From positions 5,836-69,835 of the forward strand of contig CALRHD010000004.1 of the NCBI GenBank assembly GCA_943359325.1: 64,000 nucleotides of DNA. Direction: 5' to 3'. Positions 5,208-46,847 of the stretch are shown here, one piece after another; position 1 is the stretch's first letter; every line of letters begins with the position of its first letter. The notes beneath the pieces were generated by a model. That model was not told where the DNA came from, did not search any database, and saw only the letters and a list, made by a program, of their open reading frames with translations. This stretch comes from Candidatus Uhrbacteria bacterium (GTDB taxonomy: Bacteria; Patescibacteriota; Patescibacteriia; UBA9934). A program made the translations under genes and the position numbers.

Positions 5208-5249
5208 TTATCCACAGTGTAAGATTCTTAAAATCACTACTTATCCACA
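5208..5249 (+). promoter_or_regulatory. two perfect DnaA-box 9-mers (TTATCCACA) 24 nt apart in the upstream region of the surface-protein operon
   Basis: ttatccaca at 5208-5216 and at 5241-5249, read directly from the sequence. Confidence 0.5.
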
Positions 5250-5299: not shown

Positions 5300-5316
5300 C
5301 CATGTTCATTCGCTCT

Positions 5317-5511
5317 GGATTCCCGCCTACGCGGGAATGACAAACCTGTGTGTTGAGGCGTCCATAAGAGCCTGTTTATAATCTCACACGTTTCCCATAA
5401 ATGCATCGCTAACGCTGTCATCCTCACGAATGTAGGGAACCGGTGTATTTCTTTGGATTTTCGCTTACGTGGGAATGACATGTCCGTCTGTTGAGGCATT
5501 TATAAGACTGC
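5317..5511. repeat. two copies of a roughly 57-nt direct repeat (5317-5374 and 5455-5511, about 75% identical), each with an internal hairpin, lying downstream of the minus-strand tRNA-Ala
   Basis: ggattcccgcctacgcgggaatgaca...gttgaggc...taaga aligns with ggattttcgcttacgtgggaatgaca...gttgaggc...taaga. Copy 1 contains the palindrome tcccgc-ctac-gcggga. Confidence 0.55.
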
Positions 5512-14443: not shown

Positions 14444-14511
14444 GTTTTTCCACACACCTCGCTCCGTGCGAGGTGTTGCGGTATACTGTCCTCAACATTT
14501 TTTTTTACGAT

Positions 14512-15189
14512 ATGCTCAACACTTCACAACGCCGCATTGGCGTGTTTATCGACATACAGAACATGTACTACAGCGCTCGAAACATTTACGGGCAGAAGGT
14601 CAATTTTCTGAACATCGTCAAAGCTGCAGCAGGCGACCAGCAACTTATTCGCGCTATTGCATACTGCGTTTCCACGAAAGGTGGCGACGAGCTCGCGTTT
14701 TTTGAAGCACTCCATTCCGTCGGCATTGAAGTCATGACGAAGGAACTGCTCGAATACGATTCAGGACACAAAAAAGGGGATTGGGATGTAGGGATCGCTA
14801 TCGACGTTGTACGCATGTGCGACATGTTTGACGTCGTTGTGCTCGTGTCGGGCGACGGCGACTATGTCCCTGTCGGCGAATATGTGAAGAGTCGCGGCCG
14901 TATTTTCCAAGTTATGTCGTTCCGTGAGTCAACATCCACAAGGCTCGTCGATTTTGCTGATGTGTACACAAACCTTTCCGACGACAAGGGTCGTTACCTC
15001 ATGGCAGCCTCCGGTCGCTCCCGTCCTGCAAAACATGGCGAAGCAAGCATTGACTTGACCGCAGTCGAAGACGAAGCAGGCGCTGCAGCACCAAAAAAGC
15101 CTGTTGTCGCCAAGAAAGCAACCGCTCCAGACGAAAAAGAAAAGGTCGACCAAGCACGCAAGCCACGCCGCTACAATCGTCATAAATAG
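14512..15189 (+). CDS. NYN-domain (LabA/YacP-like PIN-fold) protein with Lys/Ala/Pro-rich basic C-terminal tail
   Basis: RRIGVFIDIQNMYYSAR...NFLNIVKAAAG...AIAYCVS...VVVLVSGDGDYVP... matches the NYN/LabA family. The tail AAPKKPVVAKKATAPDEKEKVDQARKPRRYNRHK is histone-H1-like. Confidence 0.75.
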   Translation: MLNTSQRRIGVFIDIQNMYYSARNIYGQKVNFLNIVKAAAGDQQLIRAIAYCVSTKGGDELAFFEALHSVGIEVMTKELLEYDSGHKKGDWDVGIAIDVVRMCDMFDVVVLVSGDGDYVPVGEYVKSRGRIFQVMSFRESTSTRLVDFADVYTNLSDDKGRYLMAASGRSRPAKHGEASIDLTAVEDEAGAAAPKKPVVAKKATAPDEKEKVDQARKPRRYNRHK

Positions 15190-17480: not shown

Positions 17481-18707
17481 ATGAACACGCCGCTCAACAT
17501 TCCACTGAACGCCGCCCCCGCAACCCGTCGTGATACACGTCGGGTTGTTTCGGTTGTGTGTGGCGTTATTATTGGCGTATTGCTCGGCGTATTGATCTTC
17601 CGTGCGCCGTTTGCCACAAGCACAACGCTTTCGCTTGCTCCACTTCACACCATCGCAACACTGCGTATCCTCAAAACGCACGCAACAGAACGTATCATCT
17701 CCACACATCTCGGCATTCAACCACTGTTCCCAGGAAGTGTGTTGACGTGGGCCGATGCAATGAGCGCTGCAAAGAGTGAAATTGCTGTCTATGTACTCGA
17801 AGATGGTTCTTTTGCCTTTGGTGTCGACGCACTATTACCGCAGGCTATCGCATCAAAAGCATCGGAATATGATCTTCACGTCCGAGAAATCGGAAATACG
17901 AGTCTCATCGGTTCAAAAAAAACCATATTCCCCACAACACCAAATGCAACACTCGTCGTTTCTTCACTCCTCCCGTGGCATCAGGGTGAAGTCGTCGAGA
18001 ATGGCCGTCGGCACAGTATTGCCGTCACCCGCAAAGGAATCACACTTCGTGGCAGTGGATTCGTTGCGGAGAAGGGCCGTGCAACTGTTCCGACTGGCTC
18101 ACATGTACGCGCTCACCTTTCGCTCCCTGCCGATGCAAACAGCATTCCCGAAGAACTCATACCCCTTGCCATTGCTCCACTCGGCAGTTTTCTCGATCAT
18201 TTTATCGAAAACGGTGGTGAGATCACTCTTTTTGACGATGCGAACAGCGAAGGGTTCTCTCTTACCACAAAAACAGGCGACATGACACAGGAAGACCTTG
18301 CCGCAGCAGGCAAAGATATTATAAACAGGCGACGTTTGTCTACGCGTGTGTTGACAAACGTCGACGGAACACGTTACTCGGAGATCTATAGCGACAGCAC
18401 AAACATTATCGTTGACATACGCGCAGAAGAAAACTTTAGCCTCATAACACTCACAGATGACACGGGGGCTACAATCCGCATGACACGGACACCGAGCACT
18501 ATTACCATCGCAAATAGTAAAATTAGCATTGAAAAAGGCGAGCAAATCTACTCTTCTTGCCTACGAAGTGCACACACATGGATGCAAACTTCACTCCTCA
18601 ACGACACACCGCTCGTTACCAACGAAAGCAGCGATGCACTTCTTGTGTTCACAAAAATGTTCTCCGAGGTCGCATTCAATGACCGCAACGCGCGCTTCTG
18701 TTGGTAA
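17481..18707 (+). CDS. hypothetical membrane-anchored protein
   Basis: 408 aa. N-terminal TM (VVSVVCGVIIGVLLGVLIF). No recognisable domain. Starts 5 nt after the pnp stop. Confidence 0.55.
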   Translation: MNTPLNIPLNAAPATRRDTRRVVSVVCGVIIGVLLGVLIFRAPFATSTTLSLAPLHTIATLRILKTHATERIISTHLGIQPLFPGSVLTWADAMSAAKSEIAVYVLEDGSFAFGVDALLPQAIASKASEYDLHVREIGNTSLIGSKKTIFPTTPNATLVVSSLLPWHQGEVVENGRRHSIAVTRKGITLRGSGFVAEKGRATVPTGSHVRAHLSLPADANSIPEELIPLAIAPLGSFLDHFIENGGEITLFDDANSEGFSLTTKTGDMTQEDLAAAGKDIINRRRLSTRVLTNVDGTRYSEIYSDSTNIIVDIRAEENFSLITLTDDTGATIRMTRTPSTITIANSKISIEKGEQIYSSCLRSAHTWMQTSLLNDTPLVTNESSDALLVFTKMFSEVAFNDRNARFCW

Positions 18708-18790
18708 CTATGTGGATAACATGAGTTTTCCACACAAGTTATCCACAGGCATACACCAAATTTATGCCAATATTTATCCACAGTTGAACA
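18708..18790. promoter_or_regulatory. cluster of four DnaA-box-like 9-mers (two perfect TTATCCACA, one perfect reverse TGTGGATAA, one TTTTCCACA), about 8.5 kb from dnaA
   Basis: tgtggataa...ttttccaca...ttatccaca...ttatccaca within 83 bp, read directly. Confidence 0.55.
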
Positions 18791-18831
18791 TCTACTCAAT
18801 GTTTGCAGGGCTTGCGTGCTGTTTACAATAG

Positions 18832-19200
18832 TTGTTCAGCAAACTATACTTATTACGTGATTCACTTCACACCTGTTCATTCCACAAATCCTACGAATCC
18901 CAAGAAGCAATTGGGACTGACATAGGGGAGGTTTCCGAAGCCCCCACGCACTGTGCTTCGGAGAACACCTCACTGCTGTACTCTTCAAGTGCACGGCGCC
19001 AGGGGGAACTCGGCTGAGCCGAAGCTGCACCACGCACGCGAGGAAACCCAAGTAAGGGTAGAGCAGGTCGTCAACGCAGTCGCTGTTGACGCCGAAGGGA
19101 CGTTGCGTCGCCTTGTTATGCACCGCATGACACGGCAACCCAACGCCCCAAACCGGTGTCCAAACACTGCCCATCTCGGGCGCAGACCATTCCGATCGAG
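18832..19200. ncRNA. GC-rich (about 60%) roughly 370-nt non-coding region with multiple hairpins; candidate structured RNA of unknown class
   Basis: No credible ORF on either strand (only W/C/R-rich short frames). Local GC is well above the flanks. Three GCCGAAG motifs and several inverted repeats (tccgaagc...gcttcgga, cggctgagccg, gtcaac...gttgac). Sits between the DnaA-box cluster and the dksA-like gene. Confidence 0.3.
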
Positions 19201-19329
19201 GAAAGGGATATATTCTATCCATCTTTCATTCTGGCTTCATTGCCTTACTCCTCCATCGCACGTCGGTTTGCGCCTTTTCTTTTTCCCACGATTTGCTATA
19301 GTGCGAAGACGATACATCTTTTTCCATAT

Positions 19330-19701
19330 ATGAACGCAAAACTTCTCAGGGAACTTCGCGCCATGCTGGACTCGGAACGCCTCAAACTCCAAAATGAGCT
19401 CGACAATATTGCACGCCGCGGAAAGTCTTCCGACGGTACTTTTGCGACAGACTTTCCGTCACACGGCGATAAAGAAGACGAAAATGCCGCGGAAGTAGCT
19501 GAGTTCAGCGACAACCTCTCATTGAGCAGCGAACTTGAGTCTGCCATGAAAGACATCGTTTCCGCCATAAAAGCAATGGAGAACGGCACTTACGGCAAAT
19601 GTAAATATTGCCAGCAGGTTATTGATGTACAACGCCTCATGGCACGCCCAACATCAACGTCGTGTATTGCATGTAAAAAGACCCTCACTCAGGAAGTATA
19701 G
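19330..19701 (+). CDS. DksA/TraR-family C4-type zinc-finger protein
   Basis: 123 aa. Coiled-coil N-terminus and C-terminal CKYCQQVI...17 aa...CIAC zinc finger. Confidence 0.7.
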   Translation: MNAKLLRELRAMLDSERLKLQNELDNIARRGKSSDGTFATDFPSHGDKEDENAAEVAEFSDNLSLSSELESAMKDIVSAIKAMENGTYGKCKYCQQVIDVQRLMARPTSTSCIACKKTLTQEV

Positions 19702-26878: not shown

Positions 26879-27031
26879 TTATCGTGGGCGTGCAACAACT
26901 GTAAGACGCTTTCGACCCTTTGCGCGACGGCGCTTGAGTGTGGCGCGACCATCCTTTGTGAGCATCCGCTTTCGGAAGCCGTGCACCCTCGCACGAGCTC
27001 GCTTTTTTGGTTGATAGGTTCGCTTAGGCAT
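26879..27031 (-). CDS. rpmH: 50S ribosomal protein L34
   Basis: 50 aa: [50 protein letters not shown]. Confidence 0.9.
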
Positions 27032-27103
27032 AAAAGTAGAGTGAGTATAGGTCGCCCGCAAATAAATGTCAAAGTTTCTGCGTGTTGTGTACAAGTTCCG
27101 ACT

Positions 27104-27182
27104 TTATCCACATATTTTACCGAGTTATCCACAGTTACAATGATTTTAAGCAAAATTCTGTGGGGTTGAGGGGTGTGGATAT
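27104..27182. promoter_or_regulatory. DnaA boxes upstream of dnaA (two perfect TTATCCACA at 27104-27112 and 27125-27133, a near-perfect reverse box at 27174-27182); candidate -10 TACAAT at 27135-27140 overlapped by a box
   Basis: Read directly. Typical autoregulated dnaA promoter architecture. Confidence 0.6.
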
Positions 27183-27258
27183 GTAGGCTATGATGTGCCC
27201 AGTCGTTGGAATGAGGTCGCTTTTTTTCGCGACCTAGCCATCGCGTACTCCGCCAATT

Positions 27259-28644
27259 ATGAACACCCATGAACTCTGGCAGGCCGTACTCGGAGACCTT
27301 GAGCTGAAGACAAGCAAGGCAAATTTCTCTGCGTGGTTTCATAACACGTTTGTCAGTGAGTATTGTGCCGGCGAAGTGATCATTGGCGTTCCCAACACCA
27401 TTTGTAAGGATTGGATGGAAAAGCGTCACCATCGCGACATTATCGAAGCGATACAGAATGCAACAAACATCGCCGTGCGTAGCCTCGTCTACCGCGTTGA
27501 AACAAAAAACTCCCTCCCCACACCTATTATTCTCCGCGTTGAAACGCCCGTGGCAAAACAGGAGGACTATGGTTTTGTCACCACGCAGGGTGGTGTTGTC
27601 GATGCACCGCCCACAAGCAACATTTCGCTCAACAGCACATACTCATTCAGCAATTTCGTTGTTGGTAAGCAAAACGAGCTCGCGCATGCTGCGGCTCAGG
27701 CCGTTGCCGCACAACCCGGAGGCACCTACAATCCGCTTTTTGTGTATGGCGGTGTCGGACTGGGTAAAACCCATCTTCTTCACGCGATTGCGAATGAAAT
27801 GCGCCGTAAAAACCCGAATGTCCGCGTTGTGTATGTCACCTGCGAGCATTTTACAAACGACTTCATTCACTCCGTCCGTATTGGAAAGGGCAAGGAGTTC
27901 AAAGATCGCTATCGTGGTGCTGATCTGCTCTTAATCGACGATATTCAATTTATTACCGGCAAAGAGGGAACGCAGGAAGAATTTTTTCACACGTTTAACA
28001 CCCTCCACCAAGAAAACAAACAAATCGTCATTTCGTCAGACCGTCCTCCGAAAGCAATCCCGTCACTCGAAAAACGCCTCCAATCGCGCCTTGAGTGGGG
28101 AATGCTCGTCGACGTTGGCACGCCCGACCTTGAAACACGCATCGCGATTCTCCAAAAAAAGTGTATGGAGAAAGGGGTGGCACTCGACCATGAAATTCTG
28201 CACTACGCCGCATCCACAATCTATTCAAACATTCGTGAGCTCGAGGGCGCACTCAATAAAATTATCGCATACCACCAGTTCAAAAACATATTGCCAACGC
28301 TCGAGAGCGTCAAACCCATTCTTGCGAGCTTCGAGTCCGAGAATACAAAAAAAACGGTCACACCACGTCAGCTCATTCACATCGTTTCGGAATATTTCGA
28401 CCTTGCAATAGAAGAAATTCTCGGAAAAAGTCGCGAAAAACGTCTTGCCTTCCCACGACAAATCATCATGTATCTCCTTCGTGAAGAAATGAAGAGTTCG
28501 TATCCGTCGATTGGCAGCGAGCTTGGTGGTCGCGACCATACCACCGCAATGCACGCCTACACAAAAATCTCTGGCCTCATGCATAAGGACGATCGCCTGC
28601 AAAAAGATATGGAGCTAATTAAACAGCGCCTCTACACATCATGA
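27259..28644 (+). CDS. dnaA: chromosomal replication initiator protein DnaA
   Basis: 461 aa. Domain I (MNTHELWQAVLGDLELK), AAA+ Walker A GGVGLGKTHLL, domain IV HTH (MYLLREEMKSSYPSIGSELGGRDHTTAMHA). Confidence 0.95.
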   Translation: MNTHELWQAVLGDLELKTSKANFSAWFHNTFVSEYCAGEVIIGVPNTICKDWMEKRHHRDIIEAIQNATNIAVRSLVYRVETKNSLPTPIILRVETPVAKQEDYGFVTTQGGVVDAPPTSNISLNSTYSFSNFVVGKQNELAHAAAQAVAAQPGGTYNPLFVYGGVGLGKTHLLHAIANEMRRKNPNVRVVYVTCEHFTNDFIHSVRIGKGKEFKDRYRGADLLLIDDIQFITGKEGTQEEFFHTFNTLHQENKQIVISSDRPPKAIPSLEKRLQSRLEWGMLVDVGTPDLETRIAILQKKCMEKGVALDHEILHYAASTIYSNIRELEGALNKIIAYHQFKNILPTLESVKPILASFESENTKKTVTPRQLIHIVSEYFDLAIEEILGKSREKRLAFPRQIIMYLLREEMKSSYPSIGSELGGRDHTTAMHAYTKISGLMHKDDRLQKDMELIKQRLYTS

Positions 28645-28902
28645 CCTATCCACAGAATTTGTGGATAATGCTGTGGGCAACACCGTGTACAACTATGTGT
28701 GTTCGCCTGTGACAGAAAAGCACATAACGTGCGTCGCAAAACATCTCAAGAGTTATCCCTTCCCTCACCACCACATTCATCGCCGCTTACACACAGTCGC
28801 CTACGCCATTTTCAAAAAGCAGAGTAGGCCGGAATCCACTTATGAGACTTATCCCCCTCCTTACAAGTTACTGTTACTAAAAAGTTTTAAAATATCACTC
28901 AC
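28645..28902. other. putative oriC between dnaA and dnaN: DnaA boxes (TATCCACA at 28647, perfect reverse TGTGGATAA at 28660-28668, weaker boxes) plus an AT-rich stretch before dnaN
   Basis: Boxes and the AT-rich tract ttactgttactaaaaagttttaaaatatcac read directly. Position is conserved in many bacteria. Confidence 0.55.
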
Positions 28903-46436: not shown

Positions 46437-46847
46437 CTAGCTTTGTGTCGACGTGATAATGGAGCTAATAACGAAGCTCGCGATGGCGTACGCCGAGAGA
46501 ATAATCGCCAAACCGATGATACCTGCGATAATGAGGTTCTTTGCTTCGGTGACTTTTTCGTCGTTGCCTCCTGCAGTCATCCATTTAAAACCGCCGAGAA
46601 GAATAATGACGACCGCAATAACGCCGAGGAATCCGAGGAGTACACGAATAAGTTGGCCGATGGTCGTTTTGATGTCTGCTTGGCCGAGGCCTGCAGTGTC
46701 GCCGAAGTCGGACGGCAAAATGTCTTCTGCTTCAAGCTGTTGTGCATGTGCAGGAACTGCCTGCATGAGCATTGCACCGCCAAACGGCAGGGCAAGGAGT
46801 GCCGCAACGCTTGCGCCGACCAAGAACCGTGTAAAGGTTTGTGTCAT
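46437..46847 (-). CDS. TrbC/VirB2-like pilin family protein (paralog 3)
   Basis: Signal peptide ending AHA. Core LIRVLLGFLGVIAVVIILLGGFKWMTAGGNDEKVTEAKNLIIAGIIGLAIILSAYAIASFVI. Confidence 0.7.
   Translation of the reverse strand: MTQTFTRFLVGASVAALLALPFGGAMLMQAVPAHAQQLEAEDILPSDFGDTAGLGQADIKTTIGQLIRVLLGFLGVIAVVIILLGGFKWMTAGGNDEKVTEAKNLIIAGIIGLAIILSAYAIASFVISSIITSTQS

Follow-up and report, generated by a model that had tools for sequence, protein, structure and literature searches.

The window analyzed here, a 64-kb stretch (64,000 nucleotides) of a Candidatus Uhrbacteria genome (contig CALRHD010000004.1), carries a structured element in the gap between the orphan gene that follows pnp and a dksA-like gene. 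We consider it likely, short of firm confidence, that this element is a gene standing on its own, whose product belongs to a new family of large (∼330–480 nt; ∼428 nt here), multi-domain structured RNAs of Uhrbacteria-like candidate phyla radiation bacteria, and that the RNA is tied to DnaA and acts in trans. An initial annotation of the same DNA had proposed a structured non-coding RNA of unlisted class at this place. That proposal is supported by covariation, by the lack of any Rfam 15 match, and by the lack of a conserved open reading frame (ORF). The novelty lies in the RNA family; orphan structured non-coding RNAs, as a broad category, are already known.

We searched for related loci. The dksA-like protein has hundreds of homologues from sources labelled Candidatus Uhrbacteria or Patescibacteria, and these source names are the only basis for the organism names of the relatives. 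On three contigs reached through homologues of the orphan protein (L004, L005, and L006), the order orphan gene, ∼600-nt gap, dksA-like gene was kept. The gap aligned end to end, near-identical in L004 and with ∼80% identity and clear compensatory changes in L005 and L006. Additional loci were obtained by three exact-protein look-ups and one metagenome scan using a DksA alignment. In all loci reaching far enough, pnp, the orphan gene, the gap, and the dksA-like gene were present, and the wider conserved block comprises xerC, rpsO, NYN, pnp, the orphan gene, the RNA, dksA, lspA, comM, LysM/M23, and tig. The same-synteny element was found in at least 60 distinct loci. Iterated nhmmer detected it in 63 distinct sequences upstream from a dksA-like gene, 58 of which were near full length (370–540 nt with the promoter). 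A covariance model of the central domain, built on a 48-sequence seed, was run on 75 sources and matched in 64 of them, with exactly one plus-strand copy at each locus. It recovered at least eight loci outside the seed (L034, L063, L071, L076, L082, L092, L093, and L096), and its single copy in the 64-kb window lies at 18970–19069.

The RNA is the best-conserved sequence of its locus. Between the window and L004, the RNA was 98.8% identical, versus 93.5% for lspA, 92.8% for pnp, 88.5% for comM, 86.8% for dksA, and 72.9% for the orphan gene. For L005, the corresponding identities were 81% for the RNA, 64.5% for dksA, and 53% for the orphan gene. With an invariant 20-mer of the family (GGGGGAACTCGGCTGAGCCG), the RNA was found in none of the GTDB-based representative genomes. 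The sole exact match (L007, a Fimbriimonadaceae metagenome-assembled genome, 3947–3966) falls inside a 1017-aa ORF, and we dismissed it as chance. The pattern AAAACCANNGAATGGTAGAG gave 0 matches against viral contigs.

We scored covariation against two controls: helix strands slid by 1–3 columns, and 500 shuffles. In the 3′ arm (54 sequences), 18 of the 20 pairs changed on both sides and 91.6% of the cells were paired, versus 36–45% in the slid controls. The covariation score was 0.699 versus 0.12–0.15 slid, and 0 of the 500 shuffles reached it; one pair, for example, is UA in 28 sequences and CG in 25. The central domain (48 sequences) behaved similarly: 14 of 21 pairs changed on both sides, 89.3% of the cells were paired versus 33–50% slid, and the score of 0.332 (0.07–0.11 slid) was again reached by 0 of 500 shuffles. 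This domain consists of two helices. The first is a long-range helix in which C.CUUCUCUACUGU pairs with AUGGUAGAGGAG across the family (CUCUACU with GGUAGAG); it has 12 pairs, eight of them changed on both sides, and 90.1% of its cells are paired. The second is an arm, GGUU-C-GCUCG...CGAGU-AA-AACC, with a variable tetraloop hairpin. Six of its nine pairs changed on both sides in the main clade, and the 5′ partner strand of the window clade was placed without confidence. Support for a long 5′ hairpin was weaker than for the other two domains, with compensatory changes at seven of 10 predicted pairs (43 sequences). Covariation over homologous gaps thus supports several helices in 43–54 sequences. 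The structural features of the RNA in the window are the following:

18875–18887, plus strand: conserved 5′ block, GUUCAUUCCACAA (family consensus GUUCUUUCC).
18890–18926, plus strand: clade-specific hairpin CCUA..UCCCAA-loop-UUGGGA..UAGG, with compensatory changes among the window, L005, and L006.
18925–18971, plus strand: long 5′ hairpin, GGGGAGGUUUCCGAAGC (18925–18941) with GCUUCGGAGAACACCUC (18955–18971).
18971–18982, plus strand: 5′ strand of the long-range helix, CACUGCUGUACU (family consensus C.CUUCUCUACUGU).
19038–19055, plus strand: 3′ side of the central arm and junction, GCGAGGAAACCCAAGUAA (family consensus CGAGUAAAACCAAUGA).
19056–19066, plus strand: 3′ strand of the long-range helix, GGGUAGAGCAG, in which GGUAGAG is nearly invariant.
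19069–19091, plus strand: hairpin CGUCAAC-loop-GUUGACG, in a region that varies across the family.
19097–19149, plus strand: 3′-domain arm, GGGACGUUGCGUCGCC (19097–19112) paired with GGCAACCCAACGCCCC (19134–19149), with a variable tip.

Several parts of this fold are fixed in sequence as well as in pairing. The invariant or nearly invariant blocks are GUUCUUU, GGGAGG..UCCGAAG, CCCCAC, UUCGG, CUCUACUG, GAGUAAAACC, and GGUAGAG. The family-invariant CCCCAC (18941–18947) lies in the loop of the 5′ hairpin; main-clade members present this loop, CCCCA, on a separate small tip hairpin with a covarying stem. The 54-sequence alignment of the 3′ arm contains two invariant G-C pairs, and between them most members have an A/C mismatch (GAG/CCC); the window clade has C for A there (GCG). 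Other parts are specific to clades. The hairpin at 18890–18926 is absent from most of the family, including the main clade. Conversely, a conserved single-stranded linker of five A-R-N triplets (AAAACAAAAACAAAAGC), joining the 5′ strand of the long-range helix to the central arm (L022, L023, L026, L057, and most main-clade loci), is missing from the window clade. RNAalifold on four close sequences gave, for the window clade, a candidate 5′ pairing of ACCUGUUC (18871–18878) with GAGCAGGU (19061–19068), where changes are one-sided only; this pairing is plausible in some subclades and competes with the long-range helix in others. An ACC/GGU mini-hairpin from the same type of four-sequence prediction was superseded by the long-range helix, which uses that GGU. 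No covarying partner that would place the CCCCA loop in a pseudoknot was detected. The GGG located 5′ of the hairpin was rejected as such a partner: it pairs at the hairpin base and becomes GAG in some members while the loop is unchanged. Around the 3′ arm, GACGCCG can close with CCGGUGUC in the window clade, and the MAFFT alignment had no closing helix in register family-wide. The minimum free energy of the plus strand was −131.6 kcal/mol (z = −4.1), a value equaled by 0 of 100 dinucleotide shuffles; the fold of the minus strand was weaker (z = −2.6).

The signals that frame the RNA are:

18822–18850, plus strand: sigma-70-type promoter, −35 TTTACA (18822–18827), 17-nt spacer, −10 TATACT (18845–18850).
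18857–19284, plus strand: predicted RNA gene of ∼428 nt, its 5′ end deduced from the −10 and its 3′ end from the U-run.
19179–19284, plus strand: terminator-like long-range GC helix and U-run, GGCGCAGACC (19179–19188) with GGUUUGCGCC (19265–19274), then UUUUCUUUUU (19275–19284).
19294–19302, plus strand: predicted extended −10 of the dksA-like gene's own promoter, TGCTATAGT.

The RNA promoter matches the consensus at 10 of 12 positions. Its −35 and −10 columns are conserved in all 58 homologues as TTGACn-17-TAnnAT, and an equivalent promoter was called in L026. At the other end, a GC helix of 5–10 bp stops 0–1 nt ahead of the U-run in most family members, and the helix shows a compensatory G-C to A-U change in L005 and L006. 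A simple terminator scan missed this helix because its stem encloses 36–100 nt. Between the U-run and the dksA ATG, an extended −10 (TGnTAnnnT) was present in 38 of 51 loci compared to two of 102 control windows; it lies mostly 30–45 nt ahead of the ATG and was called as a promoter in L026. These predicted signals frame the RNA as a separate plus-strand transcription unit.

The promoter region also contains repeats. The −35 belongs to a palindrome with the spacer (TTGACCnnnGGTCAA or GTTGACtttttgtGTTCAAC; 18822–18842 in the window, with equivalents in L017–L096), and a third copy of the palindrome motif, TTGAACAC, is located ∼60 nt upstream in most loci (18783–18790 in the window). By sequence, these copies look like an operator for some factor.

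The spacer upstream from the RNA promoter carries a cluster of DnaA boxes:

18711–18782, both strands: cluster with perfect TTATCCACA boxes at 18711–18719 (minus), 18739–18747 (plus), and 18774–18782 (plus).
18726–18734: DnaA box with one mismatch, TTTTCCACA.

The three perfect boxes lie just past the stop of the orphan gene, 40–111 nt ahead of the −35. Across the whole window, there are eight perfect boxes versus 0.42 expected. Among the related loci, all 56 with at least 150 nt of upstream sequence had at least two boxes (with at most one mismatch). In most main-clade loci, the boxes occupy positions −122/−123 and −91/−92 from the −35, and the sequence between them varies. Perfect boxes numbered 102 in 7,081 nt upstream of the promoters versus three in 176,105 nt elsewhere in the same loci, a ∼725-fold enrichment. 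Conserved consensus boxes (TTATCCACA) therefore adjoin the promoter, as is expected of a DnaA-regulated promoter, and we infer that DnaA binds these boxes and controls transcription of the RNA.

The window probably contains the replication origin (oriC) as well, in the rpmH-dnaA spacer at ∼27030–27260, with boxes at 27104 and 27125 and another after dnaA at 28660. It is expected ∼8.4 kb from the RNA locus, and the cumulative GC-skew minimum falls at 24–30 kb. We considered a secondary origin at the RNA spacer and rejected it on the position of this minimum, which is not at 18.7 kb. The pnp-to-comM block, including the RNA, is transcribed towards the probable origin and thus meets the leftward fork head-on. 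A second pair of perfect boxes (5208–5216 and 5241–5249, 33 nt apart) lies near tRNA-Ala and tRNA-Arg and is adjoined by two copies of a hairpin-like repeat, ggattcccgcctacgcgggaatgaca and ggattttcgcttacgtgggaatgaca (∼5310–5345 and ∼5455–5485). Inside dnaA, a sub-threshold match to AsdA, an antisense RNA of dnaA mRNA, was recorded on the minus strand (27745–27795; 29.7 bits versus a gathering score of 52); it may only mirror the conservation of the dnaA coding sequence.

These results confirm the observation of the initial annotation, with small corrections. The ∼600-bp gap that it reported between the gene after pnp and the dksA-like gene is real and measures 622 bp, from the stop at 18707 to the ATG at 19330. 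It had placed the element at 18832–19200 and described the center as GC-rich. The richness holds for 18900–19200 (60.1% GC, versus 44.5% and 47.5% in the 400-nt flanks and 50.6% in the full window), while the whole of 18832–19200 comes to 55.8%. The inferred transcript (∼18857–19284) starts 25 nt inside those limits and extends 84 nt past their end; the conserved promoter and the DnaA boxes had been overlooked, and so had the true 3′ end. Of three reported GCCGAAG copies, two are exact (19018 and 19091) and the third reads TCCGAAG (18934). The shorter CCGAAG occurs four times in 165 nt, counting a minus-strand copy at 18956, and a single helix accounts for the copies at 18935 and 18956, which form its two strands.

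The immediate neighbors of the RNA are:

17481–18707, plus strand: orphan protein of 408 aa, with an N-terminal hydrophobic segment and no Pfam match, fast-evolving.
19330–19701, plus strand: TraR/DksA-type zinc-finger protein of 123 aa.

The orphan protein has just four homologue clusters among 5.8 billion. Its gene is nevertheless present between pnp and the RNA in every locus, though it shows 73% nucleotide identity where pnp shows 93%. An NYN-domain gene (a predicted RNase; 14473–15189, plus strand) lies between rpsO and pnp in every locus reaching that far.

We compared the RNA with the 4,227 families of Rfam 15, using covariance-model scans at gathering scores and permissive scans (E ≤ 10). 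The cmscan of the whole window at gathering scores returned seven tRNAs only, and no family matched the element. A permissive scan of 18600–19400 gave nothing but noise outside the element and one microRNA match of 14.9 bits, and the permissive scan of the whole window contained no sub-threshold match to RNase P RNA, transfer-messenger RNA (tmRNA), signal recognition particle (SRP) RNA, or 6S RNA. When the RNA of the window, of L023, or of L026 was scanned by itself, these four classes again gave no match at E ≤ 10 (the weakest matches listed had ∼14–15 bits), and 18 further loci likewise gave none. The element also matched no cis-regulatory family or known aptamer fold of Rfam in these loci (the window, L023, L026, and the 18 further loci), and the OLE, GOLLD, ROOL, and raiA models had no match at E ≤ 10 in the window or in 20 related loci. 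Elsewhere in the window, a fluoride riboswitch aptamer gave a sub-threshold match at 46470–46532 on the plus strand (22.5 bits versus a gathering score of 34, E = 0.068). We found no description of the RNA in open-access full text.

Could the RNA be a highly diverged RNase P RNA, tmRNA, SRP RNA, or 6S RNA that the models miss? Its ∼430 nt, strong promoter, single copy, and very high conservation would suit a housekeeping RNA, and rnpA lies inside the window, ∼7 kb away. We examined RNase P closely because diverged RNase P RNAs of the candidate phyla radiation need very low thresholds: for 10 of 35 such genomes, the RF00010 threshold had to be lowered, to as little as 5 bits (Lui et al. 2021, PMC8172020). 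The signature motifs, however, were absent from all or nearly all of the 58 members. GGAAAGUCC occurred in none. For CR-I (GAGGAAAGUCC), GGAAAGTCC occurred in none and, with one mismatch, in three; for CR-V (ACAGAAnCCGGCUUA), ACAGAAnCCGGCUUA/ACAGAAnCCGGCTTA with up to two mismatches occurred in none. We also tried to thread the fold onto RNase P RNA, equating the long-range helix with P2 and the central arm with P3 or, separately, the 3′ arm with P4. The helix order, the absence of complementary P4 strands, and these motif counts led us to reject it. The GAGNAAACC block stands directly between the arm and the 3′ strand of the long-range helix, such that a P5–P18 core cannot fit, and the GAACCC block pairs locally around a hairpin of ∼30 nt, not in a P4-type pseudoknot. 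GAGGAAACCC and AAUGAAU beside the long-range helix loosely resemble the CR-I and J18/2 motifs of RNase P RNA. As for tmRNA, ARAGORN found none in the window or in the 58 members, the T-arm motif GGUUCGAnUCC (at most one mismatch) and UCCACCA each occurred in one of the 58, and no smpB was found in the window or the loci with a query sequence of Escherichia coli SmpB. We rejected tmRNA on its A-rich stretch too: relative to the nearest UAG, the stretch lies in differing frames, one member has no UAG, and the window clade lacks the stretch, so that neither a frame nor a stop codon is conserved. The SRP domain IV motif GGAAGCAGC (at most one mismatch) was absent from all 58. Motif counts and ARAGORN thus agree with the initial annotation, which had found no RNase P, tmRNA, or SRP signatures, and we regard a missed housekeeping RNA as very unlikely. 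An RNA that binds RNA polymerase, like 6S RNA or Ms1, and shares this target with the neighboring DksA-type factor seems to us quite improbable. A DksA/TraR-type zinc-finger neighbor is conserved in all loci and the RNA is stand-alone and probably abundant, but its fold is multi-domain, not a rod with a central bubble, and it has no 6S match. Moreover, adjacency to dksA is unspecific because the entire rpsO-to-comM block is syntenic.

The initial annotation had also suggested a long leader of the dksA-like gene. As a riboswitch or attenuator of dksA-lspA-comM, the element would use its 3′ helix and U-run as a conditional terminator and set expression by read-through. It is indeed always directly upstream of the dksA-like gene and co-oriented with it, and several members offer the strand ahead of the U-run two possible GGGC partners, one distal and one proximal, which has the look of alternative pairing. 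Yet a riboswitch or attenuator should have no promoter between element and gene, and the extended −10 stands exactly there, after an RNA that ends in a GC helix and U-run. With 330–480 nt and several ornate domains, the RNA is far above known leader sizes; it is more conserved than the gene that it would regulate, lies 180–650 nt from this gene in some loci, and matches no riboswitch or leader of Rfam. A cis-acting leader is therefore disfavored, and we rate it as unlikely. Alternatively, selection may preserve the DNA: the spacer, close to oriC, would bind or titrate DnaA or serve as an auxiliary origin element, and the transcript would be incidental. Three to four DnaA boxes and an AT-rich stretch (38% GC) lie ∼8.4 kb from the expected oriC in the rpmH-dnaA spacer, every locus keeps box pairs, and DnaA titration clusters near origins are known (PMC12371093). 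Against this, changes downstream of the boxes are compensatory and keep Watson-Crick or G-U pairs of one strand, which shows selection on RNA structure. A conserved promoter and U-run frame the covarying region, and the GC-skew minimum is away from 18.7 kb. A function of the DNA only thus appears highly improbable, although it and the RNA reading are compatible as regards the boxes themselves. Finally, the region might encode a small protein. The initial annotation had called it ORF-free; two mechanical ORFs do cross it in the window, one of 128 aa (minus strand, 18836–19222) and one of 126 aa (plus strand, 18953–19333). Neither has a Pfam match, and both are interrupted in L005, L006, and L008. 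The verdict of no plausible ORF stands because close relatives break both frames. The longest stop-free stretch ranges from 38 to 153 aa across the family with no common frame, so that no conserved short protein gene emerged. Among the contigs examined, a gene was annotated in the gap only in L008 and L009 (63 aa, minus strand), and the substitutions are pairwise compensatory. The probability of a small protein is negligible.

A number of points weigh against a stand-alone, DnaA-tied RNA. The transcript, its ends, and its abundance are all deduced from sequence, and so is the binding of DnaA. At ∼120–155 nt upstream, the boxes are distant from the inferred start by the standards of a classical activator or repressor, and they could instead be an origin-near DnaA-titration site that merely shares the spacer. 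The terminal 3′ helix differs from a canonical terminator hairpin.

What known RNAs does it resemble? Like bacterial RNase P RNA (RF00010/RF00011), it combines its size and strong conservation with a long-range helix of invariant sequence, and rnpA is in the window; unlike RNase P RNA, it has no covariance-model match, no CR-I or CR-V, no P4-type pseudoknot, and an incompatible helix order. It shares with tmRNA (RF00023 and permuted forms) its size and, in the main clade, an A-rich single-stranded stretch after a structured 5′ part, but it has no tRNA-like domain and no conserved tag frame or stop codon, and the window clade is without the A-rich stretch. The 6S rod with its central bubble likewise contrasts with the multi-domain fold. 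Like riboswitches and long 5′ leaders (T-box and cobalamin among others), the RNA is structured, lies upstream of a co-oriented gene, and is ended by a helix and U-run; here, however, the downstream gene has its own predicted promoter, the RNA is far larger, and no aptamer family matches. It comes closest to the orphan ornate RNAs OLE, GOLLD, ROOL, and the raiA motif RNA. These too have several hundred nucleotides, many conserved helices, and invariant loop and junction nucleotides, and each is a single-lineage, gene-like RNA with its own promoter and terminator and a function that cannot be read from its sequence. The RNA described here differs from them in its Patescibacteria host, in the DnaA boxes ahead of it, in having no Rfam match, and in being single-copy in a fixed housekeeping synteny near the origin, not beside tRNAs or prophages. 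In its regulatory logic, it most resembles CcnA of Caulobacter crescentus. CcnA is a short, base-pairing non-coding RNA of the cell cycle, encoded near the origin and described as modulating the master regulators CtrA and GcrA (PMC8959179). Both are non-coding RNA genes near the replication origin, with a promoter that carries sites (predicted ones here) for a master regulator of the cell cycle or replication. In contrast to the short alphaproteobacterial CcnA, our RNA is ∼430 nt long, multi-domain, unrelated in sequence, and equipped with DnaA boxes.

Taken together, these results suggest the following scheme for a stand-alone RNA tied to DnaA. The near-consensus sigma-70 promoter would drive the RNA, and the GC helix and U-run would end it ahead of a separate dksA promoter. 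The 5′ hairpin presents the CCCCA(C) loop, the long-range helix encloses the conserved arm and junction, and the 3′ arm carries the invariant G-C pairs. DnaA would bind the conserved upstream box pair, and transcription of the RNA would thus follow the replication-initiation state of the cell; judging by the boxes, it is probably tied to DnaA. The RNA would not be a leader of dksA; its invariant loops and junctions would let it act in trans, most likely as a ribonucleoprotein component or a ribozyme-like housekeeping RNA.

Large, highly conserved, and heavily structured RNAs are rare in bacteria, and those with a solved function are ribozymes, ribonucleoprotein cores, or unusual assemblies. 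In at least 60 genomes of uncultured small-genome bacteria, an RNA that matches none of 4,227 Rfam families leads its locus in conservation. A covariance-model seed is now available for annotating these genomes, where the gap at present stays empty. The DnaA box pair has a fixed spacing in most loci, and a link between replication initiation and the function of the RNA is therefore directly testable. Tentatively, and with well less than even confidence, we can go further: this may be a hitherto undescribed class of large ornate RNA that the whole Uhrbacteria-like lineage carries, with a promoter hard-wired to DnaA; as a cell-cycle-coupled ribonucleoprotein or ribozyme component, the RNA would cover, in minimal genomes, a function for which they lack proteins.

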